A stretch of DNA of 32,000 nucleotides, from positions 8,302 to 40,301 of the forward strand of contig CAKOZD010000016.1 in NCBI GenBank assembly GCA_934131175.1, in the 5' to 3' direction. Under the pieces are notes generated by a model. The model was not told where the DNA came from. It worked only from the letters and a program-made list of their open reading frames with translations, and ran no database searches. Numbering within the stretch: position 1 is the first letter of the stretch; each line of letters opens with the position of its first letter. This DNA comes from an uncultured Bacilli bacterium. GTDB lineage: Bacteria > Bacillota_I > Bacilli_A > RF39 > UBA660. The position numbers and the translations under genes were made by a program. This document shows positions 7,548-31,879 of the stretch, piece after piece.

Positions 7548-9428
7548 CTAACAAGCCTTCTTTATTGCTACTGCACCATATGGTGTAATTATATCTTTAG
7601 TTGATTTATTTAAAGTATAAATCTTTGCTTTGCAATCATTATATTCTGGTGGTAATAATATTCTACCTTCCTTACCGCTTCTATTTGTAATAACAAGCAT
7701 CTTATCATTTAATCCAATTCTTTCATATGAAAAGTAATCACTATTTATATCTCTTATTTTTAAATCAGCTTTTTGTAAAAATTCCTCACCATTTCTAATG
7801 TTTCCGAGAGTTTTAAAATATTCTTGCAAATCTTTATCTTCCATTTTCCAAGGAAAAGTCTTTCTATTTAGTAAATTACCATATCCATCTATGCCTACCT
7901 CATCTCCATAAAATATTGAAATATTTCCTGGTAAAAAATATAGTGCAAATAGATAAGACTTAAGTTTCTCTTTTGCCTTTTCATAGGCCTCCTTAGAAAC
8001 AACTTTACTCTTTAAATAGTTTAAATCATTATTCTTTAAGTCCCAAGCCCATTCTGCATATTCATTAAATTCATTATTATCTAAAAACAAATTAATTATT
8101 CTAGAAATATCATGAGTTGAAGTAAAATTCATTAAAGAGTTAATTGTCTCTTCTGGATACTCTCTTAAAATATCTCTTATAATGTAATCTAGTTTATTAC
8201 AATCTGAATATTTATAATATCTAAGTAAAGCATCAATCAAAGGATAATTCATAACTGTATCCATACATCTACCAGAAGAAATATATCCTCTTCCCATTCT
8301 CATAGGATTTTTCCATACCTCTCCTATTATAAATCCATCTGTCTTATTTCTTTTAACAGCATTTCTAATTTTTTCAATAAAATCATCACTTAATTCATCT
8401 GCAACATCTAGTCTTAATCCATCTATTCCTAAATCGAACCAATTATCAATTACTCCCCCGACTCCAGTAATATATTCTTGCCATTCGCGTGATGCACAAT
8501 CACATTCTGGTAAATTATCAAATCCCCACCAATAATCATAATAAATTTTACCATTTTCATAATGTCTTTTATAAAAGTTAGAATACTTAGACATAGGATT
8601 ATTATATGCCCCTTCTCCACCAAAAGACTTATACTCATCAAAATATTTACTATCATTTCCAGTATGATTAAAAACAGCATCAAGAATAACTTTCATACCC
8701 CTTTTATGAGCCTCATCACATAATACTTTTAAATCAGCATTACATCCAGCATAGGGATCAACATTTTTATAATCAGATGTATCATATCTATGATTAGATT
8801 GACTATAAACAATAGGACTTAAATATAAAATAGATACTCCAAGAGACTTTATATATTCTAGCTTTTCAGTAACGCCTTTTAAATTCCCACCATAAAAGTC
8901 GACATTCCAAACTTCTTTTCCAACCATTTTACTTATTTCTTTATTTGCACCTAAATGCATCTCTTCATTCCAATCTTTATGAATAACACGTCTAGGCATA
9001 TCAACTAATTTACTATCATCACTCTTATTAAATCTATCTACAAATATATGATACATTATTTTTCCTTGAGCCCATTCTGGTACTTTAAAATTAACATTAA
9101 GTTTAAAACAATCATCACTTGAAAAAATAGCATTTTGTAATCCATTCTTATTAAAATGATAGGTCTTACCATTTACATCATAAGAAAAGCAGTATCTATA
9201 TATAGCCCTTGTATCTAAAGTAATATCACCTTCAAAAATAGCGTACTCATTCTTATTTCCCTTATGAGAAAAATTTTTATAACTGATTCTTTCTCCATCA
9301 TCAATTAACAATTTAACATTATAAAACCAACCTAATTCCATTGGAAGTTTTACCTCACAATGATAAGTATTTCTATCTTTATTATAGTTAGTAACTTCCA
9401 AACTATAACTAACCTTTTTATTTTCCAT
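7548..9428 (-). CDS. glycoside hydrolase family 13 (alpha-amylase family, neopullulanase/cyclomaltodextrinase-like)
   Basis: The four GH13 conserved regions are visible: DAVFNHTG, GIDGLRLDVADEL, IIGEVW and FTSTHD. There is also an N-terminal beta-rich domain. Confidence 0.85.
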   Translation of the reverse strand: MENKKVSYSLEVTNYNKDRNTYHCEVKLPMELGWFYNVKLLIDDGERISYKNFSHKGNKNEYAIFEGDITLDTRAIYRYCFSYDVNGKTYHFNKNGLQNAIFSSDDCFKLNVNFKVPEWAQGKIMYHIFVDRFNKSDDSKLVDMPRRVIHKDWNEEMHLGANKEISKMVGKEVWNVDFYGGNLKGVTEKLEYIKSLGVSILYLSPIVYSQSNHRYDTSDYKNVDPYAGCNADLKVLCDEAHKRGMKVILDAVFNHTGNDSKYFDEYKSFGGEGAYNNPMSKYSNFYKRHYENGKIYYDYWWGFDNLPECDCASREWQEYITGVGGVIDNWFDLGIDGLRLDVADELSDDFIEKIRNAVKRNKTDGFIIGEVWKNPMRMGRGYISSGRCMDTVMNYPLIDALLRYYKYSDCNKLDYIIRDILREYPEETINSLMNFTSTHDISRIINLFLDNNEFNEYAEWAWDLKNNDLNYLKSKVVSKEAYEKAKEKLKSYLFALYFLPGNISIFYGDEVGIDGYGNLLNRKTFPWKMEDKDLQEYFKTLGNIRNGEEFLQKADLKIRDINSDYFSYERIGLNDKMLVITNRSGKEGRILLPPEYNDCKAKIYTLNKSTKDIITPYGAVAIKKAC

Positions 9429-9501: not shown

Positions 9502-11214
9502 TTATACCTTCTCCTTCATCACTTTTTTCTCATCAATACAAATTAAAATTATATAAAACAAAAGCATTAATAATCTCATTCCATATATATGCATATAAAA
9601 ATCTAGCACAGAAAACATACATATAATTACAAATAAAGAAAAATAAATTACACTTTTACTATTCTTTCTATTTTTAAATATCAAATATATTCCCGAAAAA
9701 TATATAATTAATAAATAAATGGGACCAATTATACCTATATCTAACCAATATTCAAATAATATACTATGTGGATTCTTTTCATTATAATTATTATCTGTTG
9801 CGATTAATCTGTAATATTTAAAAGTATCTACTCCTCTACCATATATATAATTAGTATTTTTTAAATATTTTAAAGAATCTTTATAATAATCAAATCTATG
9901 ACTAACACTTTCTCCATCATACTTAGTAAGTTCTAATTGCCTTGTTATCTGATATGGAACAATAAAAGTATTTATACTTTGCTCATGTCCATCAACAGTA
10001 ATTTTATTTATCTTTATATTTGTGTTTTCATCAAGTCCTCTTATACTTAATAAATAATATTCAGCATCACTACTACCAGTAACTTTAAACTCACCATTGA
10101 TGCTTATATAATCAAATGAAGTAAAACTATTATTATTAACGCATCCTTTTTCTAATACAAAGTGAACATCCCCGCTATAAACTTCATAATCAATATTAAT
10201 TGTATATTCTTTAGAAGGTTTTAGAAATAACTCTGTAATGTAATAATTATCACTAGTATATTTTGTACTATGAACATTATTTATTTTTAAAGGAATATTT
10301 ATAGGTTTAAATAATAAATAAGTAAGTATAATTACTATTAGTAATGAAGTAATTAACTTTATATATTTATTTTTTAAAATATAAGTAATTAATATATAAT
10401 AAATTACAAAAATAATTAAATTATTAGTAATAAATTCTATTAAATTATAATTAATTAAATATGTTCTATATGTAGTAATTGATAAACAAACTGGTATTAA
10501 TATTGATATTACATCCCAAAGTATTAATTTTACTTTTTCATATTTTTTATATATCAAATTATAAACTATATATATAAATAGTACTATTATAAAACATATA
10601 GTAATCATCTTAGAAAATGTATAACTAAACCCTATAAAACTAATATATAAAGTTAAATAATCAAATACTTTTTTATTGTCTTTTAATAGTGTTATAAAAA
10701 TACTTATTAAGAATAATACAGCTGATGCATTACAATAACACAATACTCCATAAAATCTATCTATACTATTATAATATGTATCTGTAAAAGGCGATAATAT
10801 TCCAATATTTGAAAAGAAGTCTTGATTTTGGTATGATACAAAACTTACAATGAAAGAAAATATTGTTATTAATTGTAATACTTTTAAAAAGTTATTTATT
10901 TTATTATTATCTATAATTCTTCTAAAATTAATTATTATTAAAGCAATACTTGCGTTACATGTAATAGCAAAAATATTACTCATAAATGATGTTTTATTAA
11001 GTCTAAATATTAATATTAATAAATATGATAATGGTATTAATAAAAATAATATATCTTTTTTATCTATCTTTACTCTATTAATGATTAAATAAATAACATT
11101 AATGACTAAAAATATTATACTTGCACTATTAATAATATAGCTATTTGTTGAGAAGAATAATAAAATAGTCAAGTATATATACATAAATATCATAAATAAT
11201 TTATCTTTTTTCAT
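9502..11214 (-). CDS. polytopic membrane protein, O-antigen ligase/polymerase-like
   Basis: At least 10 predicted TM helices with a large central extracytoplasmic segment. It overlaps the downstream glycosyltransferase subunit genes. The family call is weak. Confidence 0.45.
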   Translation of the reverse strand: MKKDKLFMIFMYIYLTILLFFSTNSYIINSASIIFLVINVIYLIINRVKIDKKDILFLLIPLSYLLILIFRLNKTSFMSNIFAITCNASIALIIINFRRIIDNNKINNFLKVLQLITIFSFIVSFVSYQNQDFFSNIGILSPFTDTYYNSIDRFYGVLCYCNASAVLFLISIFITLLKDNKKVFDYLTLYISFIGFSYTFSKMITICFIIVLFIYIVYNLIYKKYEKVKLILWDVISILIPVCLSITTYRTYLINYNLIEFITNNLIIFVIYYILITYILKNKYIKLITSLLIVIILTYLLFKPINIPLKINNVHSTKYTSDNYYITELFLKPSKEYTINIDYEVYSGDVHFVLEKGCVNNNSFTSFDYISINGEFKVTGSSDAEYYLLSIRGLDENTNIKINKITVDGHEQSINTFIVPYQITRQLELTKYDGESVSHRFDYYKDSLKYLKNTNYIYGRGVDTFKYYRLIATDNNYNEKNPHSILFEYWLDIGIIGPIYLLIIYFSGIYLIFKNRKNSKSVIYFSLFVIICMFSVLDFYMHIYGMRLLMLLFYIILICIDEKKVMKEKV

Positions 11215-20970: not shown

Positions 20971-21384
20971 TTATTTAGAAATATTTTGTAAGAATCCTTT
21001 AATTTTTTCATAATTATTGAAATCAATATTAAGAGATTTATTAATTAAACTAATTAACTCTTCTCTATTTAAATTCTTGTCATAACTATTATTAGATAGT
21101 GCTTTATAATGATTATAATTATCAAAATCACCATTTACTTTTTCAATAATATTGTCTTTAGAGCAAACAAGAAAAGCTAAATCAATACGTCTTAATTTAT
21201 CAAGAACTTTATCATAAGAATTAAGACCAAATGATGTACAATTATTTATATATTTATATTCAAAGAGATACCATAATATTAAAGCATCATCATTATATGT
21301 TTTATAAAATATTCCTTCTTTAACAAGAATTATTGAATGTTTGTATTGTTCCTTATACATGTCATATAAATCTTTTGATTTCAT
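20971..21384 (-). CDS. small MutS-domain-I-like protein, candidate DGR accessory factor
   Basis: ILVKEGIFYKTYNDDA...SFGLNSYDKVLDKLRRIDLAFLVCSK aligns by eye with MutS [17 protein letters not shown]...[28 protein letters not shown]. The ATG at 21384 lies 4 nt after the RT stop. Confidence 0.55.
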   Translation of the reverse strand: MKSKDLYDMYKEQYKHSIILVKEGIFYKTYNDDALILWYLFEYKYINNCTSFGLNSYDKVLDKLRRIDLAFLVCSKDNIIEKVNGDFDNYNHYKALSNNSYDKNLNREELISLINKSLNIDFNNYEKIKGFLQNISK

Positions 21385-21388
21385 AAAC

Positions 21389-22522
21389 CTAGTTCCCTTC
21401 TTCAAGAAAAAATTTATTCTTGTATACAAAATTATTAGTAGTTGATACTTTAAAATACCCATTATAACTAGCAAGAGATTTCTTATAAAAATTAATATTA
21501 TTTTTTCTTGCTTTTCTTAACTTTCTTTTTATTTTCTTACGTGTTTGATTATTAAGTAAAATAATTAATTTTTTATTTTTTAAAATAAATTTATATCCTA
21601 AAAAATTCACTCCACTCTTTAAATTATAAATCTGTGTTTTCTTATTAAGAGATAACTTAAGAGAAGATAACTTTTTATTAATTAAATTTAGACATTTCTT
21701 TAAATATTCTTTATCATGATGAATTAAAATGAAATCATCCATATATCTAATGTAATACTTAATATGAAGATGTTCTTTTATATAATGATCAAGTTCATTC
21801 AAATAATAAATAGCAAGTAATTGACTTGTCTCATTACCAATAGGTAAACCTTTTCCTTTATGATACCTTGGTAGACTATAGAGTTGTTTTTTTCTTAACT
21901 CTAAATCATAAATATTCATATCTTCTAAGTGAGATATTTCTCTATTTATAGAACTATCTATTAAATCATTTATATAGCCATTATCAGTACTATTAATTAT
22001 ATTAATTAAAATCTTTAAAATATCTTTATCAAAATTTTCATGAGATAACTTATTAATTAATATTTCATGATCAATATTATAAAAGTACTTACTAATATCA
22101 CATTTTAAAATATAAACATTATCATAATTTTCTTTAATAGAATTAATATATTTTTTCATATATCTAATTCCTTCTTTAGAACCTTTTCCAGTTCTTGTAG
22201 CAACATTTTGTTCAATTAACTTTCTTGATAAAGTTGGTATTAAAACATATTTACTTATTAAGTGATTAACTATTTTATCATACATTAATTCACTCATTAT
22301 AATTCTATACTTAGGTTCTTTAATTATAAAAATATTATATTTAAGATGACTATAATGTTTGTTATTTAAAGTATTATATATCTTAACAATATTAGATGTT
22401 TTAGTTAATTCAAATCTTACTAGTTTTGCTTTATGACATGTATTTTTATAGATACCATCATATACATCTTTTATTTTATTAATAGAAACAATATCATTAT
22501 AAGAAATACTATATTTATTCAT
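21389..22522 (-). CDS. DGR-type reverse transcriptase
   Basis: RT motifs CDISKYFYNIDH, LPIGNETSQ (DGR-specific [I/L]GxxxSQ), YIRYMDDFIL (YxDD) and VNFLGYKF. It lies next to Avd and the TR/VR pair. Confidence 0.9.
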   Translation of the reverse strand: MNKYSISYNDIVSINKIKDVYDGIYKNTCHKAKLVRFELTKTSNIVKIYNTLNNKHYSHLKYNIFIIKEPKYRIIMSELMYDKIVNHLISKYVLIPTLSRKLIEQNVATRTGKGSKEGIRYMKKYINSIKENYDNVYILKCDISKYFYNIDHEILINKLSHENFDKDILKILINIINSTDNGYINDLIDSSINREISHLEDMNIYDLELRKKQLYSLPRYHKGKGLPIGNETSQLLAIYYLNELDHYIKEHLHIKYYIRYMDDFILIHHDKEYLKKCLNLINKKLSSLKLSLNKKTQIYNLKSGVNFLGYKFILKNKKLIILLNNQTRKKIKRKLRKARKNNINFYKKSLASYNGYFKVSTTNNFVYKNKFFLEEGN

Positions 22523-22910
22523 TTACAAGTTTATATTCCTTAGAATCTTTTTTATAAACATATTTCTTTAATGTAGCATTGTCTAATATTTTATTGATTG
22601 TTTTTGAATTATAATTATTAAGTACCTTACCATCTAAATCATAAACAATATTATTTTCAACATAAGCTTCTTTAGTAAACATAATAATATTTTCAGAATT
22701 ATCATTAGAATAACCATATAACTTAGAAATATATTTTCTAGTAGATGTATCAACATTATTATCTTTTATATTATTATATAAATTATAAACAACTTTATAT
22801 TTTACTACTTTATTTTTATTACCTTTCTTAGTATCTGATAAGAAAGATATTGTGACTAGTACAAGTATTATTACTAGACTTATAAATATTAATTTTTGTA
22901 TTTTATTCAT
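22515..22910 (-). CDS. small protein with an N-terminal membrane anchor, function unknown
   Basis: One N-terminal TM helix (LIFISLVIILVLVTISFL). It overlaps the avd stop by 8 nt and the RT start by 8 nt, which suggests translational coupling. Confidence 0.5.
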   Translation of the reverse strand: MNKIQKLIFISLVIILVLVTISFLSDTKKGNKNKVVKYKVVYNLYNNIKDNNVDTSTRKYISKLYGYSNDNSENIIMFTKEAYVENNIVYDLDGKVLNNYNSKTINKILDNATLKKYVYKKDSKEYKLVNE

Positions 22911-23256
22911 TAATAGTCACCTCTTTTTTTCGTAGTGCTTTAGTCATAGCAATTATTTCTGATAAGAAATTACCTATAACAATATATTTCTTTTCACTTA
23001 TAATTTTTTTATCATGACTTATATTTATATAAAAATTTAACATTGATATAGATATTAATAAGTCTTTTAAGTTTTTATCTTTTATTCTTATTGAATCATT
23101 TATGTTGTATGAGTAGATATTTTTTATTAATTCATAACAGGTTTGTTCTATGTTATTTTTTAATACTACTTCTTTTTTAGGATAATCAACTAAGACTTTA
23201 TTAATGTAGTTTATTGTTTTATATGATTTATCTAATATTTTGAAATTTGTTTTCAT
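22903..23256 (-). CDS. avd: Avd-like four-helix-bundle protein (DGR accessory variability determinant)
   Basis: About 117 aa, helical and basic, with the pattern DYPKKE..L...IEQ....L...I..N ... LKDLL..ISMLNFYINIS..KK.IS.KKY...GNFLSEI. GGAG (23264-23267) sits 7 nt before the ATG at 23256. Confidence 0.7.
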   Translation of the reverse strand: MKTNFKILDKSYKTINYINKVLVDYPKKEVVLKNNIEQTCYELIKNIYSYNINDSIRIKDKNLKDLLISISMLNFYINISHDKKIISEKKYIVIGNFLSEIIAMTKALRKKEVTINE

Positions 23257-23510
23257 ATTGTTTCTCCATAATGTGGCAAAAGAAACTAAGATGATATTCT
23301 TGATGAATCTTTTCCACTGATATAGCAATAGTTAATTAATCTCTTGTTAAATAACGTCTATACCTTGTTTTTAGCACAGTGGCATGGGACTAACCTTGTT
23401 TCCAATCTAGATATGATTATTGCTAATGCAACTACTTCCTCTAAGTATCAGCCATGACCAATACTATGCGGTTCATTAGTTATAATAATTACTAATTTGT
23501 AGTAGGAAAT
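23257..23510 (-). ncRNA. non-coding segment 3' of the template repeats (candidate spacer/priming region of the DGR RNA)
   Basis: No ORF and less AT-rich than its surroundings. It contains UUAGUCCCA (23393-23385), complementary to the UGGGACUAA that precedes each TR. Confidence 0.35.
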
Positions 23511-23618
23511 TGGGCGAACGCTGTAGCCGTTACCAGTGTTGTTGTTCGTAAGCTCGCCTGAAGAATTCACGTTGAACTCGTTCGCATTACCCCAATTGTT
23601 GAAGATGGACGGCGACAT
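23511..23618 (-). repeat. DGR template repeat TR-1 (36 codons, no cognate VR in this window)
   Basis: It encodes MSPSIFNNWGNANEFNVNSSGELTNNNTGNGYSVRP with 10 AAY codons. It has the same 5' leader and the same termini as TR-2, but a different interior. Confidence 0.75.
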
Positions 23619-23663
23619 GCACTCATCTGACCACTAATTAGATTAGTCCCAAATTTTGGAAAT

Positions 23664-23775
23664 TGGGCGAACGCCGTAGCCGTTATTGACATTACCCCAT
23701 TCGTTCAACTCGCCGGAAGACGTCACATTCAACTCGTTAGCGTTGCCATTGTTGTTGAAGTTGGACGGCGACATG
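23664..23775 (-). repeat. DGR template repeat TR-2 (cognate of the VR)
   Basis: It aligns with 23939-24050 at an offset of 275. There are 20 mismatches, all at template adenines on the coding strand. It encodes MSPSNFNNNGNANELNVTSSGELNEWGNVNNGYGVRP. Confidence 0.9.
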
Positions 23776-23863
23776 CACTCATCTGACCACTAATTAGATT
23801 AGTCCCAATTTTTTCATTCCCTCAATGATGAGTCATTTCGGGACAAGTTGTTTTCTTTTCTTA

Positions 23864-26602
23864 TTATTCAATAACATATGGATCCTCCTTCGTTCCTGAA
23901 CCTGTGAACTGAAGATTTGAAGAATCTAGATTGATCACTGGGCGAACGCCGTAGCCGCCACCGACAAAACCCCATACGCCCAACTCGCCGGAAGACGCCA
24001 CAGACAACTCGCGAGCGCCGCCATTGACGTAGAAGTGGGACGGCGACATGGTCCAATAATAGGTACCGGTATACAAATAGAATAATTGATTTTTATAACT
24101 TGTTCTTGCTCCTGCCATGTTAACTTCATCTGCTGTTATTAAACCAATTGGACTTGTTAATTTTTTGTTACCGATTGTACTATTTGTTGTTGTAAATTTA
24201 TCATTAACATTTGAACATGTTAATCTTGGTCCAGTCATTCTTCCACCCCATGAGTAGAACCTTTCATATCCATATATTGTTGGTACTGCTCCATATCCTG
24301 AATTTTGATAAGTACCACTTTTTATTGTAGATATTTCCCTATCGTTACAGAATGATGAGTTTGTTGCAATTTTATCACTATAACTTGATAAATTGTTTTT
24401 ATACCAGTTTTCTAAATATGTTTTCATATTACTATTTGTTGTATTTGATATAGCATTTTCAAGTGATGGTGATGCATACTCTACTGCTTTTACATTCATA
24501 GATGTTGGACTTACATACTTATCAACATGATTCAATCTTTGACTAGTCGATGTTGATGATGTTCCAAAAACTGTATATAATTTATCATTCGCATGCTTAG
24601 TGTTATATTCTGATAATGTCATTGCTTCAAGTGTTCCACTCAACTTAAATGCATTGTTATTTTTATCAAATGTATATTCTGTTCCAAAATAATATTTTGC
24701 TGTTGCAGACAATCCTGAATAAGTAAAAGCATAGGTCCATTCTTTTATTTCATTTGTACTGGTGTCTCCATACATATATCCAACATAAGCATTATCACTC
24801 CATCTAGAATTAAATGCACTTGTTCCTACTTGTCTATTACTACTTGATTCACCATTTGCATGAGGAGATGTTCCATCATAAATTAATCTTACTGAATTAT
24901 CTCCATTTATTCTTATAATTCTCCAATATTTGTTTGCAAACTTAACATAGTTTCCTCCAACTATTCCTCTATAATAATAACTTGTTCCTTCATCATCAGC
25001 TGTTGAATAAAGACCTGATTCTGAATTATCATAACTTAGAATTGCTGATGAATAATTATATTTAGTCAAAGTATAAGTCACTTGTTGAGTCGTCTGGTTG
25101 GTAGATGACGTTGCACTAGTTAACAAATACATTGTGTCACAAGACGTACTTGTATTTCCACATGTATAATATGTTCCATTAGAATAATCTTTGGTTGTTG
25201 GGTCTACCAATGTTGCACTCTTTAAAGTATATTTCCCAGTTGACTCTTGGAATGTGTAACCAGTATTTGTATCTGTTACTTGTGAAATATAAATATATGA
25301 CGAAGTTGATAGCGTTGATGTTTGTGTTGCATGTATTTCATTATATTTTATAGCTGGACTTGTAACATTAAAATTAGGTGTACCTTTATTTACAATTTCT
25401 TGCTTTGCTTCAGTAACATTTGTATTTTTTTGTTCTGTTGCAATTATACAATCTGAGAAATTAGTTAAATTGTTCTTCTCACACCAACTTTTATGTCTTA
25501 TTGTTGTACTCTTAGCAGTTATTTCAGATATATTTCCTGCAATATCTTCAGCATAAACTGTTGCTAAATAATCTCCTTCATCTAAACTTGTAAATGTATA
25601 ATTAGGAAATTCACTTTCAACATAAGTAGTTCCACTATCTTTACTATAGTAATATTTACTAATTCCACTAAATGAATCTTTTGCATCTACTGTAATTGTC
25701 ATAGTATCATCATTAGGTTCAATAGTAACTGTAGATATAGTTGGTTTCTCATTATCAACTTTATATTTATTACTACATCTGCTATATTCATTACCTTTAC
25801 TATCAACTGCTTTAAAACACGCCACTTGATAATCTTTATTATTTGAAAAAGCAATATTGTATTTATTGTTTGTTTTTGTTATCTCTTTTTCTGGTACACA
25901 TACTTCATCAGTTGTTACACAATATTTTGCATAAGCAATTTTTGTATCATCTAATACTTCAAAATTAAGAGATAATGTTTTATACCAATCTTCATTTCCT
26001 AATTCATGGTCGCCTAAATCATATTTAATTCTTGTACCATTTCCTGTACCATCATCTTGTACATAATTAAGAGTAAAACTTAATTTTGCATTTATATCAT
26101 TTGGAGCGTAATTATTTCCATCCTTATATTTTATCTCTATTTTTAATGTCTCTTTTGAATCTTTTTTTAATAAGTCTTTTTCTTTTATTTCATTTCCATC
26201 CGAATATTTAATTGAATATTCTAAATATTTTTGTTGTTCTTCAGTTAATTCTGTTTTAAATATTTCTGTTAGCATAGCATCAATTGATCCTGAATTAACT
26301 ACATCAACATCAAATGAATATTTATCTCCTGGACTTTCTAACGATATATCCATTGATATTGTTGTATCATTAACAATCTTTGCTGGTGTAGTTGCTTCTA
26401 CATTTCCATCATCAAATTTTATATTTGAAAAATGAATGTTCCAAGATGTTTTTGCTATATTTGCTGTTCCAGCTAATTTTAAATTACTACTTAGATATGC
26501 ATATCCTACGCCTATAGTTGACCAAGCAAATAAGATTAACGCAAAGATAAGTAATTTTTTACTATTTTTTATTGAAAAGTATTTATTTATCTTTCGTTTC
26601 AC
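23864..26602 (-). CDS. DGR target: secreted multidomain protein (TasA/camelysin-like N-terminal domain, Ig-like domain, C-terminal variable ligand-binding module)
   Basis: GTG start at 26602. The signal-anchor ends in GVGYA. The LESPGDKYSFDVDVVNSGSIDA motif is present. An Ig-like repeat lies around DNEKPTISTVTIEPNDDTMTITVDAKD. The C-terminus contains the VR. Confidence 0.85.
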   Translation of the reverse strand: MKRKINKYFSIKNSKKLLIFALILFAWSTIGVGYAYLSSNLKLAGTANIAKTSWNIHFSNIKFDDGNVEATTPAKIVNDTTISMDISLESPGDKYSFDVDVVNSGSIDAMLTEIFKTELTEEQQKYLEYSIKYSDGNEIKEKDLLKKDSKETLKIEIKYKDGNNYAPNDINAKLSFTLNYVQDDGTGNGTRIKYDLGDHELGNEDWYKTLSLNFEVLDDTKIAYAKYCVTTDEVCVPEKEITKTNNKYNIAFSNNKDYQVACFKAVDSKGNEYSRCSNKYKVDNEKPTISTVTIEPNDDTMTITVDAKDSFSGISKYYYSKDSGTTYVESEFPNYTFTSLDEGDYLATVYAEDIAGNISEITAKSTTIRHKSWCEKNNLTNFSDCIIATEQKNTNVTEAKQEIVNKGTPNFNVTSPAIKYNEIHATQTSTLSTSSYIYISQVTDTNTGYTFQESTGKYTLKSATLVDPTTKDYSNGTYYTCGNTSTSCDTMYLLTSATSSTNQTTQQVTYTLTKYNYSSAILSYDNSESGLYSTADDEGTSYYYRGIVGGNYVKFANKYWRIIRINGDNSVRLIYDGTSPHANGESSSNRQVGTSAFNSRWSDNAYVGYMYGDTSTNEIKEWTYAFTYSGLSATAKYYFGTEYTFDKNNNAFKLSGTLEAMTLSEYNTKHANDKLYTVFGTSSTSTSQRLNHVDKYVSPTSMNVKAVEYASPSLENAISNTTNSNMKTYLENWYKNNLSSYSDKIATNSSFCNDREISTIKSGTYQNSGYGAVPTIYGYERFYSWGGRMTGPRLTCSNVNDKFTTTNSTIGNKKLTSPIGLITADEVNMAGARTSYKNQLFYLYTGTYYWTMSPSHFYVNGGARELSVASSGELGVWGFVGGGYGVRPVINLDSSNLQFTGSGTKEDPYVIE
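23939..24050 (-). repeat. DGR variable repeat (VR)
   Basis: It encodes MSPSHFYVNGGARELSVASSGELGVWGFVGGGYGVRP, ending about 25 codons before the target's stop. By hand count it is about 65 percent GC. Confidence 0.9.
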
Positions 26603-26619
26603 GCAAAATCATCTCCTTT

Positions 26620-27981
26620 TTAATTTAAATCTAAAATGTATGGATTATTTTCTTCTCCAGTTCCAGACTTTATATTTATTTCATTTTTAATTACAATTGA
26701 AGGTCTTACTCCTAATTGGTCACTTACTTTAGCACTTGATAATATTTCTGTTTTAGAAGATGTATCAATATTTGAATTTGTATCATAGCTATATGGAGTC
26801 ATTGTAAAGAACACTTCATCATTTGAAAAATTATTAACTAAACCAACTTCTTCTGATGTTAATAGTGCAACTGGATACGTTAACATTCCATTTCCATTTC
26901 TTACACTTACTGTGAAAGCATCTCTTGTGTTTTGACACGTTAAACTTATATTTGTTTTAGTATAATTTAATTTATTGGTATGCCATGAATTAAATATATT
27001 TAATTTATTTGTTGAATCTTCATCTTTATTTTTTATACTTCCTGTATATAAATCTCTATTATTACACCATACTGAGTCTTCTAAATATTTTGTATAGTCT
27101 ATCATATTATTTTTATACCATTCATCTATTTCTTTTTTTATATTTGAGTCAGTTATATTTACAAAACTTTTTTCTTTTATTGTATCTATTGTTGCTCCAC
27201 TTGATAATTCAAAATATTTAGATGTTATATCACTAGAAAAATCAGTTACATAATATACTTTTGAACAATAATTTTTTGCATCAAAACATGTATAGTGATA
27301 TTTAGTTGCTAATGTATTTTTATCATTTGTCCATGATGTTGATATATAATCATCACTTAAAACATAAGTATCTGTATCTTTATTATATGTTACATTATTT
27401 GAATAAACATATTCATAATCCTGTTTTGTCATATCCTTTTCTTCTTGTTTATAAGAAACTCCATACATATATCCAACATCTGTTAAACTATTACTATCTG
27501 AATTAAAATTTGTAATTGTAAGTAAAGAGTCTTCACCAGTATTTGTACATACTCCATTTGAATCAGGTTTACCATTATATAAAATTTTTGTTCCACCCTT
27601 TTCTGTTGTTCTAATTATCTTCCAACAGTATCCAGCAAAATTAACATTATTATTAGTTGTATTTCCTCTAAAATATTTAATTGGAAATTCATCAGTTATA
27701 GTTTCATTTTTTAAATATATTCCTTTTCCATTAGTATCAGAAGATTCTTGATTAAAATCTATACCATCAGTATTTTTAACATAATCACTTTCTATATTAT
27801 CTTCTACTGCATTGCATCCTATTCTTTTATATAAATTTTTGACTGCATTACAATTTTTCTTCTTTACTGTGACATTTGAATCAATAGTCAATGTTGTTGA
27901 AAGGAATGCATATCCTATACTTACTGAAAAAAACAATATTAAAATTAATGTTATATATATTTCTTTTCTTGTATATTTCAT
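26620..27981 (-). CDS. non-diversified paralogue of the DGR target that lacks the TasA-like and Ig-like domains
   Basis: It shares the signal/N-terminal strand (SIGYAFLSTTLTIDSNV) and blocks such as YFRGN..NNVNFAGYCWKIIR, VGYMYG and EWYKNN...WCNNRD. Its C-terminus is MTPYSY...QLGVRPSIV. Confidence 0.7.
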   Translation of the reverse strand: MKYTRKEIYITLILILFFSVSIGYAFLSTTLTIDSNVTVKKKNCNAVKNLYKRIGCNAVEDNIESDYVKNTDGIDFNQESSDTNGKGIYLKNETITDEFPIKYFRGNTTNNNVNFAGYCWKIIRTTEKGGTKILYNGKPDSNGVCTNTGEDSLLTITNFNSDSNSLTDVGYMYGVSYKQEEKDMTKQDYEYVYSNNVTYNKDTDTYVLSDDYISTSWTNDKNTLATKYHYTCFDAKNYCSKVYYVTDFSSDITSKYFELSSGATIDTIKEKSFVNITDSNIKKEIDEWYKNNMIDYTKYLEDSVWCNNRDLYTGSIKNKDEDSTNKLNIFNSWHTNKLNYTKTNISLTCQNTRDAFTVSVRNGNGMLTYPVALLTSEEVGLVNNFSNDEVFFTMTPYSYDTNSNIDTSSKTEILSSAKVSDQLGVRPSIVIKNEINIKSGTGEENNPYILDLN

Positions 27982-28004
27982 AAAACTATTCCTTTCTAAA
28001 AAAC

Positions 28005-28622
28005 TTATTTTTCAAATGAAAATCTTTCACTACTTTTTTTCACATCATCTTTTTTTCTTACTGGAGATATTTTATATGCTTTATCATTTGGTAACTTTAT
28101 TATTGTTGTTTTACTTATTTCGTTTAATGTTTCTTCATCTATATCTCCTTTATTTTTATTCTTGATTTTATTATTATTAATTTCTATCTCAAGAGGTGAT
28201 AAAATATCATCATTCTTTTTTAGAATAAATATTATAGCTTGGTTTTGATCAAACAAAATAAATGAACAATTATCTGTTTGTTTAAAAAAGTAAATCATTT
28301 TTCTTAATTCTGTTTGAGCATCAATTAAGTCATCTATTGAATTAACTAAAATTATTTTCTCACTATCTATAACTGGAACCTTTCTTGTTTCAACTAATAC
28401 TGAATCATATGTTTTTAATATTTTCTTTAATTTTGTTTCATACTTTTCTTCGTTTGTATCTCCAGCAAATCTATATGTTAATTCTTGAATTATAAATGAT
28501 ACTGCTATTGCTAATACAATAACTGCATAATTTATATAACTATTCATAATCAAATACCCCCCAAAAAGCACAACTGCTAAAATAAATATATCAAATATTA
28601 TTAATTTATCTTTCTTTGTCAT
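28005..28622 (-). CDS. membrane protein with two N-terminal TM helices, function unknown
   Basis: ORF tightly packed between the signal peptidase gene and the paralogue gene. Confidence 0.5.
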   Translation of the reverse strand: MTKKDKLIIFDIFILAVVLFGGYLIMNSYINYAVIVLAIAVSFIIQELTYRFAGDTNEEKYETKLKKILKTYDSVLVETRKVPVIDSEKIILVNSIDDLIDAQTELRKMIYFFKQTDNCSFILFDQNQAIIFILKKNDDILSPLEIEINNNKIKNKNKGDIDEETLNEISKTTIIKLPNDKAYKISPVRKKDDVKKSSERFSFEK

Positions 28623-28626
28623 ACAC

Positions 28627-29787
28627 TTATCCTTTCTGAGAAATTAGTTCAGATATAAATACACTTGGATATGAAATATATGGTATTTTTCCTATAACTT
28701 TTCCCTTTATATTCTTTAATTTTATTTCAACATTATCTTCTGTATTATTGGCATCACCTTTTGTTATATATATCTTTTCATCATTTTTAATCATTGTTTT
28801 GACTATCCTATGTATTATTATTCTGTCACTTGTCTTATAAGCGATAATGTCTCCTTTTTTTATTTCTTTTTCATTTTTTATCTTCTTAATAATTACTGCG
28901 TCCCCTTTGCTTATTTTTGGTTGCATTGAATTTGAACCAATTCCAAGCATTTGATATTTAAACACCCCTGACGTTAACAGTATTAGAACTAAAATAATAA
29001 TTACTAATGGAATATCATATAATTTTATAGATTTTTCTTTAAATTCATGTTTAATTGGTTCTCTACTATATTGTTCAACAATAGATGACGTACTTATATA
29101 TATCATTATTGGTAAAGTTATTAATATCATTGAATTAAAATAGTCACCTAAATTTGGAAATATTGGTAAAAGGTATTTATACAAATCCATTACTAAACGA
29201 TATATTACTGAACTTTTTAATCCAGCATAATATGTTAAATAACTTAATGATGCATTTTTTATTATTATTGGTAATATAACCGATGATGTTATTTCAAACA
29301 CATTTTTAAAATTATAATTAATTATTGGTCTGATTGTTATCGTTAATTCTAATAAAATTAAACCTATTGTAAATAGAGTTATATCTTTTTTCTTATCAGT
29401 GTTTGATGATATAAAAATATATCTTATTAATTCTGTTGCAATAATAATTATTATTGGTGAAAGCATATTTTCAAATATCTTATTTATTTTTAATGAGTAA
29501 GCATTTTTCAAGAAACCAGTAAAGAAACCTAATAAATACATTATTGCAAAGGTAATTACAACAAAAAAGATTGTGTTTTTTAATAAATCATCTTTTATTT
29601 TTGTTTTCTTATCTTTTCTATAACCATATATTAAAAGTAAAATACTTAATAATATTATTAAAAATCCAGCAGTTAGTGTTTCTGAGTAAGCAGGGATTCT
29701 TGTAAATATAATGAATTTATAAAAAAGTATATATAGGAGTATTACTAATAATAAAATATAATTTTTTAAATTTCTTTTCATTTTCAT
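28627..29787 (-). CDS. SipW-type (S26B, archaeal/ER-type) signal peptidase I fused to an N-terminal polytopic membrane domain
   Basis: The C-terminal roughly 110 aa carry GSNSMQPKISKGD (catalytic Ser), IIIHRIV (His) and TKGDANN. About 270 aa with 7-8 hydrophobic helices precede them. Confidence 0.7.
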   Translation of the reverse strand: MKMKRNLKNYILLLVILLYILFYKFIIFTRIPAYSETLTAGFLIILLSILLLIYGYRKDKKTKIKDDLLKNTIFFVVITFAIMYLLGFFTGFLKNAYSLKINKIFENMLSPIIIIIATELIRYIFISSNTDKKKDITLFTIGLILLELTITIRPIINYNFKNVFEITSSVILPIIIKNASLSYLTYYAGLKSSVIYRLVMDLYKYLLPIFPNLGDYFNSMILITLPIMIYISTSSIVEQYSREPIKHEFKEKSIKLYDIPLVIIILVLILLTSGVFKYQMLGIGSNSMQPKISKGDAVIIKKIKNEKEIKKGDIIAYKTSDRIIIHRIVKTMIKNDEKIYITKGDANNTEDNVEIKLKNIKGKVIGKIPYISYPSVFISELISQKG

Positions 29788-29847
29788 CCCTTCTTCTATA
29801 CTTATATATAGATACCTGCTCTATATTTATATATAAATATAGAAGTT

Positions 29848-29872
29848 GCAGCTTGGATTTTCACCAAGCTGC
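29848..29872 (-). terminator. GC-rich hairpin after the small TasA-like gene (possible partial terminator)
   Basis: GCAGCTTGG (29848-29856) / CCAAGCTGC (29864-29872) with a 7-nt loop. The T tract on the minus strand is weak. Confidence 0.45.
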
Positions 29873-29884
29873 TATATCTATTTA

Positions 29885-30424
29885 TTAATCTTGAACATAG
29901 TTCATTGCAAATGTTAAATTTAATGTTTGTGCGTCTGTAGGTAATTGATTATTTGAAATATTTTTATCAAATTCAACTCTTACCCTTAATGTTTTTGTTG
30001 CTCCAACAGCTAATTTATCATCTGCTTTAATTGCAGTACCATCACTATATTTAACTGTATAATTTGTATAAACATCTTGTTCTGTTGATACTCCGCTTAA
30101 TATAGGTGCATCACCTAATTTTGCAGCAATAGTTCCATTGTTTGTAACATCTACTGTAAATTCATAAAAATCACCTGGTTTAGTTAATTCAACATTGTAA
30201 TCAACTGTTGTTGTGGCACTATCAATTGCAGCTGCTTTTGTTGCTGATACACTACCTGATGTAACTTGTAAATTTGTAAAATGTACATCCCATGAAGCAT
30301 TATTAATTTTTGAAGTTCCCTTAATATTTAAAGTTGTGCTTAGAGCTGCGTATCCAACTGTAATAGTTAATAGTAATAAGGCTAGTAGTGATAAAACAAC
30401 TTTTTTACCGTTTTTTTTCTTCAA
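29885..30424 (-). CDS. small secreted TasA/camelysin-like protein (candidate major fibre subunit)
   Basis: The signal ends in TVGYA. LTKPGDFYEFTVDVTNNGTIAAKL resembles TasA NLKPGDKLTKDFQFENNGSLAIKEV. The protein is collinear with residues of about 30-185 of the 912-aa target (both end in ...NYVQD). Confidence 0.6.
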   Translation of the reverse strand: MKKKNGKKVVLSLLALLLLTITVGYAALSTTLNIKGTSKINNASWDVHFTNLQVTSGSVSATKAAAIDSATTTVDYNVELTKPGDFYEFTVDVTNNGTIAAKLGDAPILSGVSTEQDVYTNYTVKYSDGTAIKADDKLAVGATKTLRVRVEFDKNISNNQLPTDAQTLNLTFAMNYVQD

Positions 30425-30513: not shown

Positions 30514-30536
30514 TCATAATATTTGCTATATTATGA
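30514..30536. repeat. recombinase-core-like dyad, copy A
   Basis: TCATAATAT-TTGCT-ATATTATGA. It is the reverse complement of copy B at 31857-31879. Confidence 0.6.
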
Positions 30537-30594
30537 AAAAAAAGATAAAAATAAATAATATCAATGATTCTATCTTTTTTGACTAATAATTTGA

Positions 30595-31683
30595 CTAATA
30601 ATTTATAAAGATTGTATTAAAAAATTCTTTCTTGTATTCTAGATTTGAATGCACATATATTGATAATGTCGTTTTTACATTTGAATGACCAAGAACTTCA
30701 CTAAGTGATTTTATATCAAATCCAAGATGACAGCATCTTGTTGCAAATGTATGCCTTAAAATATGAAAATTGTAATCCTTCATATCAAGATTTTTTAATA
30801 TTTTCTTATAATTATAATAAAAAGTTCTTGTATCTATTGCCTTTATAGAATTTGTTAAAACAAAATTTCTTTCATTATTTGAAATTAGTTTTCTATGTTC
30901 AAGCAAACATTTTAAAATAACTTTGTCTAATGGAATAACCCTAATAGAATTATCTGTTTTTGCTGAATTTAAAATAACTTTTGTCTTCTCAAATTTTTTA
31001 CCATCATTTGTTTTAACTCTAGACAAAGTATATTCTACTGTTAATACTTTATTTTCAAAATCAACGTTTTTCCACTTTAAAGCACAGACTTCGCCTAGTC
31101 TTAATCCAGTATGTAGTGAAATTAATATACCTAATGTATACTTATTTAAATTTAATATTGAGTAGTTTTCAATCCTTTTTAATTCATTATCATTCAACGT
31201 TTTTAATATCTTTTTATGTGTTTTAGGTAATTTAATTTCAAAATTTAATCCAGAATATTTTAGAATTGATTTAAAAATGACCATTACTTGTTTTAAAGTA
31301 TTCTCATTTATTTCATTTTTTTTACTATACATAAAATTGTAAATCATTGATTCTGAAATTTGATTCGTTTTTAAATTGCCAAATGTTGGTTTTATATGCT
31401 TGTTTATAATATTTGAATAATAATTTAATGTACTTAATTTTAGATTTATTTTATTTTTATTTAACCATTCATTTATTTTTACATTGAATAAATCATTATC
31501 TATTTTTTCAATATTTTGATTTATTCTGAGCATTATTTCAGTACGTTTATTTTTTACTTCTTGATACGTCTTACCATAAACATAACCATAAATATTTTTT
31601 CCAGAATAGTCTCTTCCTTTTACATATCTTGCTTCCCATCTTCCATCTTTTCTATAAAAGATATTTTCACCTTTACGAGCCAT
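30595..31683 (-). CDS. tyrosine recombinase / phage-type integrase
   Basis: The C-terminal catalytic region has HTGLRLGE, HILRHTFAT and LGHSNVKTTLSIYVH (R..H-x-x-R..Y). The N-terminal MARKGENIFYRKDGRWEARY is typical of arm-binding domains. GGGAGG sits 9 nt before the ATG. Confidence 0.85.
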   Translation of the reverse strand: MARKGENIFYRKDGRWEARYVKGRDYSGKNIYGYVYGKTYQEVKNKRTEIMLRINQNIEKIDNDLFNVKINEWLNKNKINLKLSTLNYYSNIINKHIKPTFGNLKTNQISESMIYNFMYSKKNEINENTLKQVMVIFKSILKYSGLNFEIKLPKTHKKILKTLNDNELKRIENYSILNLNKYTLGILISLHTGLRLGEVCALKWKNVDFENKVLTVEYTLSRVKTNDGKKFEKTKVILNSAKTDNSIRVIPLDKVILKCLLEHRKLISNNERNFVLTNSIKAIDTRTFYYNYKKILKNLDMKDYNFHILRHTFATRCCHLGFDIKSLSEVLGHSNVKTTLSIYVHSNLEYKKEFFNTIFINY

Positions 31684-31856
31684 ATAATTTTACCTCCCTA
31701 ATGACTAATATTTTGACTAGTAATTATTTAAATTACATATTTATATTCAACATATTTTGACATTTTTTTACTAAAATTGACAAAAATTACAAAATAATAT
31801 TGAATTTAGAATTTAATTATTATACAATAAGAGTGTAAGATAGTAGTAAATAAGTT

Positions 31857-31879
31857 TCATAATATAGCAAATATTATGA
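31857..31879. repeat. recombinase-core-like dyad, copy B
   Basis: TCATAATAT-AGCAA-ATATTATGA, followed by T8 on the plus strand. Confidence 0.6.

Follow-up and report, generated by a model that had tools for sequence, protein, structure and literature searches.

How might an uncultured gut bacterium present a hypervariable binding protein to its surroundings? The question is raised by a 32,000-nucleotide (nt) stretch of DNA, called the window below, from an uncultured Bacilli bacterium (GTDB lineage Bacteria; Bacillota_I; Bacilli_A; RF39; UBA660; assembly GCA_934131175.1, contig CAKOZD010000016.1, positions 8,302-40,301 of the forward strand). Here, a diversity-generating retroelement (DGR) lies beside genes for a signal peptidase and for several proteins that share one N-terminal segment. 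RF39-like Bacilli, which have small genomes and no cultured members, are common in the guts of humans and animals, and we know of no account of how they attach to any surface. We analysed positions 23,864-30,424 together with the flanks, and all coordinates are positions of the window unless a related contig is named. The best explanation of the region is that it is a chromosomal surface-display or fibre operon of a low-GC gut bacterium (RF39-like Bacilli/Mycoplasmatota), joined to an active DGR. We lean modestly towards the more specific view that the proteins sharing the N-terminal module form a fibre by donor-strand exchange, with a DGR-diversified head on a subunit of 912 amino acids (aa).

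An original prediction, made from the letters of the window, had proposed a TasA/SipW-type fibre operon whose 912-aa member is the DGR target. The three co-oriented genes on which it was based are present, all on the minus strand, and encode a 179-aa candidate major subunit (29885-30424), a 453-aa protein (26620-27981) and the 912-aa DGR target (23864-26602). The N-terminal strings quoted for them are all found as well (TVGYA-ALSTTLNIKGTSKI in the 179-aa protein, GVGYA-YLSSNLKLAGTANI in the 912-aa protein and SIGYA-FLSTTLTIDSNVTV in the 453-aa protein). In each case, a G-Y-A / L-x-x-x-L-x-I-x-G segment comes after a signal peptide. Over its whole length, the 179-aa protein can be aligned with the 912-aa protein at residues 12-183 (40% identity, E 3e-35), and the N-terminal similarity between the 453-aa and 912-aa proteins covers the signal peptide and strand only (29% over 45 aa, E 1e-4). 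All three proteins thus carry the same signal peptide, G-Y-A site and amphipathic strand, and the 179-aa and 912-aa proteins also carry a beta-sandwich; the 453-aa protein is 'strand-only', with neither a sandwich nor a variable repeat (VR). The PGD...F.V.V.N.G motif noted earlier is genuine, and P83, G84, F89, V91, V93, N95 and G97 are invariant in 22 relatives.

The shared segment does not end at the presumed cleavage site. Among 61 sequences with less than 50% mutual identity, G-Y-A is conserved at 84-90%, and conservation continues beyond it at L28, L32 (89%), I34 (87%), G36 (100%), S38 and I40. From L32 onwards the intervening residues are variable, and this alternation with L32-I34-G36-S38-I40 has the spacing expected of a beta-strand that buries one of its faces. 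In an AlphaFold 2 (AF2) model of the 179-aa protein (mean predicted local distance difference test score, pLDDT, 83.5), a signal-peptide helix and a confident beta-sandwich at residues 47-178 flank the strand at about residues 27-40. Residues 23-33 have pLDDT values below 50, and block means stay below 55 up to residue 40. The strand segment is unstructured (pLDDT <55) in both single-chain models, that of the 179-aa protein and that of the 912-aa protein.

The distribution of this strand among relatives is also informative (P-numbers denote relative proteins and L-numbers related genome loci or contigs). It is missing between the tandem sandwich copies of P0121 and P0124, and it is kept in seven strand-only proteins that have no sandwich, among them the 453-aa protein. 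Strand-only proteins occupy the same position, after a gene for a DUF5305 protein, in L001, L008, L012 and L018. After the predicted cleavage, the mature N-terminus would read A-L-S-T-T-L-N-I, with no conserved acidic residue. The conservation pattern, the disorder in the models and the distribution among relatives are as expected of a donor strand, which is not proof that the segment acts as one; donor-strand polymerisation of the module proteins is plausible on this evidence.

What would such a fibre display? The 912-aa protein begins with the signal peptide and strand, continues with a subunit-type sandwich (residues 56-182) and two Ig-like domains (192-282 and 288-368), and then passes through a short helical region and a large beta-rich region to a C-terminal domain that bears the VR. 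Its AF2 model (pLDDT 81.8) repeats the disordered strand and the sandwich of the 179-aa model. The proposal that this protein has Ig-like spacers and a C-terminal VR agrees with the model, with the Foldseek matches, which are tandem Ig/fn3 arrays, and with weak PKD, Big_13 and OmpL47 matches at residues 300-367. For its C-terminal part, a profile search of the PDB and a Pfam scan gave no matches; one homologue has a precomputed DUF6273 match that was not reproduced at E<=1. The C-terminal ~400 aa of the 453-aa protein are homologous to residues 523-912 of the DGR target (28% identity, E 1e-25), and the locus proteins end in ...NYVQD, ...PYILDLN and ...PYVIE.

Full-length homologues of the 912-aa protein are widespread at 40-57% identity, and all have the invariant module residues. 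Several of their 90% clusters comprise between 90 and 220 different sequences, which is what hypervariable proteins should show. In another species (L143, 98-8774), two paralogues of 977 and 967 aa lie ~2 kb apart. Each is followed by an unannotated ~213-aa protein, with an ATPase-like gene between the pairs, and the same pairing occurs in L142.

The DGR is genuine and active. The VR (23939-24050, minus strand, codons ~851-888 of the 912-aa protein) is cognate to a template repeat, TR1 (23664-23775, minus strand), which has a 109-nt core and 11 AAY codons. Over 112 nt the two differ at 20 positions, and 20/20 of these mismatches fall at TR adenines. Further along the minus strand are genes for the accessory protein Avd (22903-23328; bAvd 45.6 bits, cut-off 40; NF033474 46.8 bits, below its cut-off of 80) and for a 377-aa reverse transcriptase (RT; 21389-22522; RVT_1, 66.8 bits). 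Evidence for activity comes from L078, a contig from another sample whose 179-aa protein is identical to that of the window. Its VR differs from TR1 at 17 A sites and at no other position, with agreement at each of the 82 non-A positions. From the VR of the window, too, it departs only at TR-A sites. Divergence between the two contigs is 12.5% in the VR and 1.6% in the rest of the 912-aa gene. Because the VR varies between strains only at TR-A sites, we regard the element as active; the codons that it rewrites, ~12 in number, are near the C-terminus of the 912-aa protein.

TR1 is not alone. A second template repeat, TR2 (23512-23617, minus strand), has a 106-nt core whose 5' and 3' ends are those of TR1, and arrays of this kind recur between the target gene and avd in related loci. 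Tandem units number two in the window, four in L001, three each in L085, L087 and L144, and one in L078, and they share the 5' end TGTCGCCGTCC, the 3' end GGCGTTCGCCC and a repeated leader of ~45 nt. The arrays lie at 23329-23880 (minus strand) in the window, and at 8180-9040 in L001, 5600-6300 in L085, 8070-8770 in L087 and 9200-9960 in L144. An 'a'-type TR has no non-A mismatches with the VRs of the window, L001, L078, L085 and L087. The VR of L136 fits a 'c'-type TR (17 A-site mismatches and one non-A mismatch) and has 11 non-A differences from the 'a'-type TR on its own contig; the VR of L082 is also 'c'-type. Since orthologous VRs match different TR types, it appears that one and the same VR is written from several alternative templates, depending on the strain.

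No VR cognate to TR2 was found in the window, and an exact-pattern scan of metagenome contigs for one gave no matches. A generic scan of the metagenome contigs for TR/VR ends returned mostly high-GC chance matches and no separate TR2 target; its low-GC matches were only orthologous loci or a fragment of a 912-aa-type gene. Among eight orthologous VRs, none corresponded to a 106-nt TR type, including the spacer-proximal one, and the template nearest the spacer seems to be unused. The L078 contig holds only a TR2-type repeat (7921-8300) although its VR fits TR1; the explanation is either loss of TR1 once the VR had been written or collapse of the tandem repeats in assembly. The ~180-nt spacer between the last TR and avd (23329-23511, minus strand) does not differ between the window, L078 and L001, the last of which is more distant, as seen in the invariant columns of a TR-spacer alignment (A3). 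This identity, despite proteins in L001 that are only ~80% identical, suggests that the spacer is a constrained RNA element and a candidate DGR RNA spacer.

Two small proteins complete the DGR cassette. Between avd and the RT gene is encoded a 131-aa protein with one N-terminal transmembrane (TM) helix (22515-22910, minus strand), which has no family match and is kept at the same position in L001, L076-L078, L087 and L136. Downstream of the RT gene, a reading frame at 20971-21474 (minus strand), called as 137 aa in sister contigs, has a marginal match to MutS domain I (MutS_I, 20.8 bits against a cut-off of 20.6). In L144, a 131-aa protein of the DGR cassette (10172-10567) has a recorded PF01624 match. 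A mismatch-binding MutS_I-like module in the cassette may bear on retrohoming.

The association between DGR and target recurs but is not universal. An RT gene lies within 10 kb in only one of 75 genome loci with relatives of the 179-aa protein, namely L001, where the 179-aa protein is 80% identical to that of the window. One 912-aa homologue sits in a 1.37-Mb contig among housekeeping genes, with no DGR nearby. In a second species (L144, 6441-12662), a DGR directly follows a 982-aa target homologue (57% identity); it comprises a MutS_I-like protein, Avd, a 217-aa protein, the RT and three TRs, with no adjacent peptidase operon.

If the module proteins are cleaved after G-Y-A, which enzyme would do this? 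Between the 179-aa and 453-aa genes, also on the minus strand, lie genes for a 386-aa signal peptidase I (28627-29787; TIGR02228, Peptidase_S26, S24) and for a 205-aa DUF5305 protein (28005-28622). The peptidase had been described as SipW-type, and this is correct insofar as the SMQP, HR and GDANN motifs and a domain of the endoplasmic reticulum (ER)/SipW type are present. With 89.6 bits it exceeds the cut-off (51.85) of TIGR02228, which models archaeal/ER-type signal peptidase I, but it falls below that of the Bacillus SipW equivalog NF046067 (70.4 bits, cut-off 190). The catalytic domain occupies residues ~260-384 and is preceded by a polytopic membrane extension with seven strong hydrophobic segments on the Kyte-Doolittle scale, and further weaker ones are possible. 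The 205-aa protein has two TM segments and matches PF17231 (DUF5305) with 35.2 bits (cut-off 29), a match that covers only profile positions 118-206 of 217, the C-terminal half. By analogy with a proposal made for AbpX-type filaments (bioRxiv 10.64898/2026.01.04.697558), it is a putative accessory subunit of the peptidase.

The link between module and peptidase, which had been proposed from this one locus, is kept well beyond it. Across the 75 genome loci, a long signal peptidase is encoded in 31 (orthologues of 374-410 aa) and a DUF5305 protein in 29, adjoining the peptidase. The order is fixed, with one to five subunit genes of ~180 aa, then the peptidase, then DUF5305 and often larger module proteins. 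This module-peptidase-DUF5305 core is conserved across ~30 species, and further cargo-bearing module proteins are scattered in the same genomes. Close relatives of the 179-aa protein itself number in the hundreds and come from metagenome-assembled genomes (MAGs) of uncultured 'Bacilli', 'Tenericutes' and 'Erysipelotrichaceae' from guts and rumens, and none of these close relatives has a Pfam domain or a name.

In an exhaustive profile search, 6758 cluster representatives matched the module. Among the best 150 of these 6758, which range from 161 to 1925 aa, the best domain copy is N-terminal in nearly all; one module match begins at residue 105. The cargo varies and includes beta-helix repeats, Gly-rich domains and tandem module copies; some relatives (the P0121, P0124, P0201, P0244 group) hold two or three sandwich copies or cargo up to a length of 1925 aa. 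The MAG RGIG2316 (JAFRAK01 contigs, L050-L075) has at least 14 loci with cargo-bearing module proteins of 258-1065 aa, amounting to about two dozen cargo-bearing paralogues.

Expression of the operon is probably variable as well. Perfect 25-nt inverted repeats (100% complementary) bracket a 1366-bp segment (30514-31879), with the proximal arm (30514-30538) 90 nt upstream of the start of the 179-aa gene and the distal arm at 31855-31879. Inside the segment is a minus-strand gene for a 362-aa tyrosine recombinase (30595-31683; Phage_integrase 86.7 bits, also Phage_int_SAM_3). Exactly the repeat-bounded segment is inverted relative to the window in L087 and L002, with the breakpoints at the repeats. 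Relative to the operon, the recombinase gene is on the other strand in L002 and L087; in L001 and L076-L080, gene and operon share one strand. The contigs of five assemblies stop just past the distal repeat. From this arrangement, the segment is probably a phase-variation switch that lies upstream of the 179-aa gene, carries its own recombinase and turns the operon on or off.

A GC-rich hairpin (29848-29872) stands directly 3' of the 179-aa stop codon, with six GC pairs in its 9-bp stem and surrounding DNA of 25% GC. An intrinsic terminator was considered here and rejected, because the coding strand has no T-run. The hairpin could be an attenuator or a stabiliser that sets subunit stoichiometry.

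Is this then a TasA fibre? Homology to TasA/camelysin itself, as first proposed, was not supported by Pfam, NCBIfam, hhalign or Foldseek, and we reject direct membership on these grounds. Neither the 179-aa nor the 912-aa protein matches PF12389 (Peptidase_M73) at E<0.1, and relatives match it below threshold only (6/22, best E 5.8e-4, and 5/61, best E 1.3e-3, in two sets of relatives). We worked with a first family profile (A1) and a more diverse one (A2). With a TasA sequence checked against 8AUR, hhalign aligned A2 to mature TasA over only 20 columns, those of the KPGD...N.G motif, at a probability of 1.3%. No TasA structure (8AUR, 5OF1) is among the 50 matches listed when the 179-aa model is compared with the PDB by Foldseek; the list consists of Ig-like domains of a generic kind, some chaperone-usher pilins and AbpA, an archaeal bundling pilin (7ueg, probability 0.91, TM-score 0.35).

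Against the PDB, profile A1 placed the AbpX entries 9sj2 and 9rhp on top, at E 0.2. Aligned directly with AbpX residues 43-160, A2 gave a probability of 68% over 91 columns, with a pairwise E of 4.6e-5 for this single-sequence AbpX. No relatives for building an AbpX profile came out of a word-based search with the AbpX fragment. Given that the AbpX match stands at E 0.2 and disappears when the more diverse profile is used, homology to the TasA superfamily at the level of the subunit is suggestive at most. The locus-level evidence for such a link is stronger than the subunit-level evidence, and the label should be 'AbpX/TasA-superfamily-like, membership unproven' rather than TasA.

The locus-level evidence comes from comparison with AbpX-type filaments, which belong to the TasA superfamily and occur in archaea, Bacillota and Chloroflexota (bioRxiv 10.64898/2026.01.04.697558). 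According to this preprint, their loci encode a dedicated ten-TM signal peptidase I and an accessory protein of the DUF5305 family, together with minor subunits and proteins for the tip; AlphaFold 3 models indicate that the subunits co-assemble by donor-strand complementation; and the peptidase-DUF5305 pair occurs specifically with TasA-superfamily filaments. The window resembles the loci of Pyrodictium abyssi AbpX and of its Thermoproteota, Bacillota and Chloroflexota homologues in having a small major subunit, a multi-TM signal peptidase I, a DUF5305 protein, further subunits with a common N-terminal strand and 'tip' proteins with other domains. It differs in the short DUF5305 protein (205 aa, two TM helices), in the huge expansion of paralogues with diverse cargo and in a subunit whose sequence relationship to AbpX is not significant. 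The AbpX work also does not mention a DGR (bioRxiv 10.64898/2026.01.04.697558).

The locus fits the AbpX-type description better than that of the tapA-sipW-tasA operon. Like Bacillus subtilis TapA-SipW-TasA (8AUR), it has a gene for an ER-type signal peptidase beside those of its presumed substrates, and its G-Y-A|A site parallels T-W-A|A of TasA, with an aromatic residue at -2, Ala at -1 and a mature TasA that starts at A28. It also has the PGD...N.G.(L/I) motif in the early strand pair, and the 453-aa protein would be an accessory with a similar N-terminal strand, as TapA is. Unlike the TasA system, it shows no PF12389 membership, no TasA match in Foldseek and the 20-column hhalign match given above. 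In addition, its peptidase has a multi-TM extension and a DUF5305 partner, and its mature subunit is ~150 aa long rather than 234 aa.

Other fibre systems offer partial parallels. The N-terminal extension, with alternating hydrophobic residues and a conserved Gly, and the Ig-like fold of the subunit recall chaperone-usher pili (Fim, Pap, CFA/I), and Foldseek ranks CfaB, FimA, PapK and the pilin domain of PapG near the top (E ~0.02-0.07, low TM-scores). In contrast to those pili, the locus encodes no chaperone or usher and its host is of Gram-positive type; membership is ruled out by the termini and the locus content. The invertible segment resembles fimS, a promoter switch made phase-variable by tyrosine recombinases, but carries its recombinase inside the segment. 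Sortase-assembled pili were rejected, since the locus proteins show no LPXTG-type signal and no sortase domain, and so was a type IV pilin-like system, since the proteins start with signal peptides of the classical n-h-c type that end in G-Y-A and the peptidase belongs to S26, not A24.

A parallel for the DGR is found in type V pili of Bacteroides, which have DGR-diversified tip adhesins encoded just downstream of the stalk subunits (bioRxiv 10.1101/2024.11.15.621889). There, a cellular DGR in a gut setting diversifies the C-terminal, lectin-like end of a pilus-associated adhesin. Here, too, a cellular DGR in a gut bacterium rewrites the C-terminal end, which may be lectin-like, of a putative fibre adhesin, whose gene likewise lies downstream of that for the candidate shaft subunit. 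Type V pili are assembled via proteolytic processing followed by strand exchange, and a similar route is proposed here. The differences are the phylum, the unrelated fibre system (the pilins of Bacteroides are lipoproteins and depend on an Arg-protease, whereas the module here depends on signal peptidase I), the presence in our adhesin of a full shaft-type domain with its own strand, and the tandem TRs of the DGR. Incorporation into the pilus has been shown experimentally for the type V adhesin and is only inferred for the 912-aa protein. The original prediction knew of no DGR linked to a TasA-like fibre. Our literature search found no publication that covers both DGRs and TasA. However, since DGR tip adhesins of type V pili have been described, the concept of a DGR-diversified fibre tip is known, and what is new is the fibre system and the phylum.

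How would the parts work together? In the mechanism that we propose, a dedicated peptidase-DUF5305 complex would cleave the module proteins after G-Y-A. The freed N-terminal strand (~A27-I40, with its alternating L32-I34-G36-S38-I40) would insert into the sandwich of the next subunit, in the way known from filaments of TasA, AbpA and AbpX, so that the 179-aa protein could polymerise into a shaft. The 912-aa protein would join through its own strand and sandwich, holding out two Ig-like spacers and a hypervariable lectin-like head. Because the 453-aa protein has the strand and no acceptor domain, it could only cap the end of the fibre that has a free groove, a role comparable to that of TapA. 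The invertible segment with its recombinase would probably switch the whole operon on and off.

Several observations weigh against this mechanism. Fibre formation, cleavage and the surface location of the proteins are all inferred from sequence, and on a reading of the locus proteins no LPXTG or SLH cell anchor is encoded. DUF11, fn3, DUF4352 and CARDB are matched as often and as weakly as Peptidase_M73; profile A2 loses the AbpX match in the PDB, leaving only fn3/titin-like entries; Foldseek finds no PDB match at E<1e-3, with low TM-scores; and no solved donor-strand filament subunit gives a significant match in sequence or structure. For the fold of the VR-bearing domain, Foldseek searches of the PDB and BFVD with the full 912-aa model are dominated by Ig/fn3 matches. 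Missing from the strand is the aromatic-2/acidic-4 signature that goes with calcium-mediated complementation in AbpX, whose donor strands have a conserved acidic residue at position 4 (bioRxiv 10.64898/2026.01.04.697558). The 386-aa enzyme could be the housekeeping signal peptidase of these small genomes. Moreover, at least two dozen cargo paralogues per genome exceed what would be expected of tip adhesins and would fit a general secretion or display tag. An explanation along these lines, the main rival, which we judge unlikely and still give real weight, is that the N-terminus is a sorting tag, with its G-Y-A site and adjoining strand recognised by the dedicated (or sole) ER-type peptidase, and the sandwich an Ig-like stalk, so that the proteins would be monomeric secreted or surface binders. 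It would account for the merely generic similarities of the sandwich (Ig-like, fn3, DUF11, CARDB), for dozens of paralogues with very different cargo and for 912-aa homologues that are often far from any signal peptidase operon. It is harder to reconcile with module-only proteins of ~180 aa that are the most conserved core genes, in up to five tandem copies, with a conserved segment that reaches ~14 residues past the cleavage site with the periodicity of a beta-strand and is kept without the sandwich, and with a peptidase-DUF5305 pair that is reported specifically for TasA-superfamily filaments.

The long helix that AF2 draws through the hydrophobic segment (residues 6-26 of the 179-aa protein and 14-39 of the 912-aa protein) and the lack of any other encoded anchor would also suit type II signal-anchored proteins, whose helix stays uncleaved, whose strand and sandwich form a membrane-proximal stalk and whose neighbouring peptidase serves other substrates. 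We consider this improbable, because G-Y-A fits the -3/-1 rule and is 84-90% conserved, the site parallels T-W-A|A of TasA with its mature chain from A28, and synteny with the peptidase is tight in 31 loci. Far less probable still is an origin in a prophage or other mobile element, with the 912-aa protein a phage receptor-binding protein diversified by a phage DGR. A tyrosine recombinase does flank the locus, Foldseek matches in BFVD include phage tail proteins with fn3 arrays, and many DGRs are reportedly phage-borne. However, the viral matches are generic Ig/fn3 matches, the recombinase lies within the 1.37-kb invertible segment and not at an att site, and 912-aa homologues occur among housekeeping genes in the 1.37-Mb contig. 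The window has no phage structural or replication genes, and the neighbours encode iPGM, alpha-amylase, a P-type ATPase and similar proteins; this housekeeping neighbourhood contradicts a prophage, and from the gene content of the window we reject such an origin.

What would such a fibre mean for these bacteria? A broader proposal, which we put forward tentatively and as a less than even prospect, is that gut RF39-like Bacilli build a donor-strand fibre from a large, unnamed branch of the TasA superfamily that counts thousands of cluster representatives and lacks a Pfam model, use it as a general scaffold for dozens of cargo subunits, and vary one adhesin subunit through an invertible switch, a DGR and a library of TRs. 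If the fibre model is right, the main surface organelle of RF39-like Bacilli would be a TasA/AbpX-like fibre with interchangeable cargo subunits, and an unnamed module family with 6758 cluster representatives would gain a testable function. The evolution of DGR adhesins would reach from the type V pili of Bacteroides to an unrelated fibre in another phylum, which would suggest that hypervariable fibre tips are a recurrent solution in the gut. The tandem TR library could overwrite the VR and so alter scaffold residues that are beyond the reach of ordinary DGR mutagenesis. Such an array would add a layer of cassette switching to the biology of DGRs, and it is potentially useful for engineered DGR mutagenesis.

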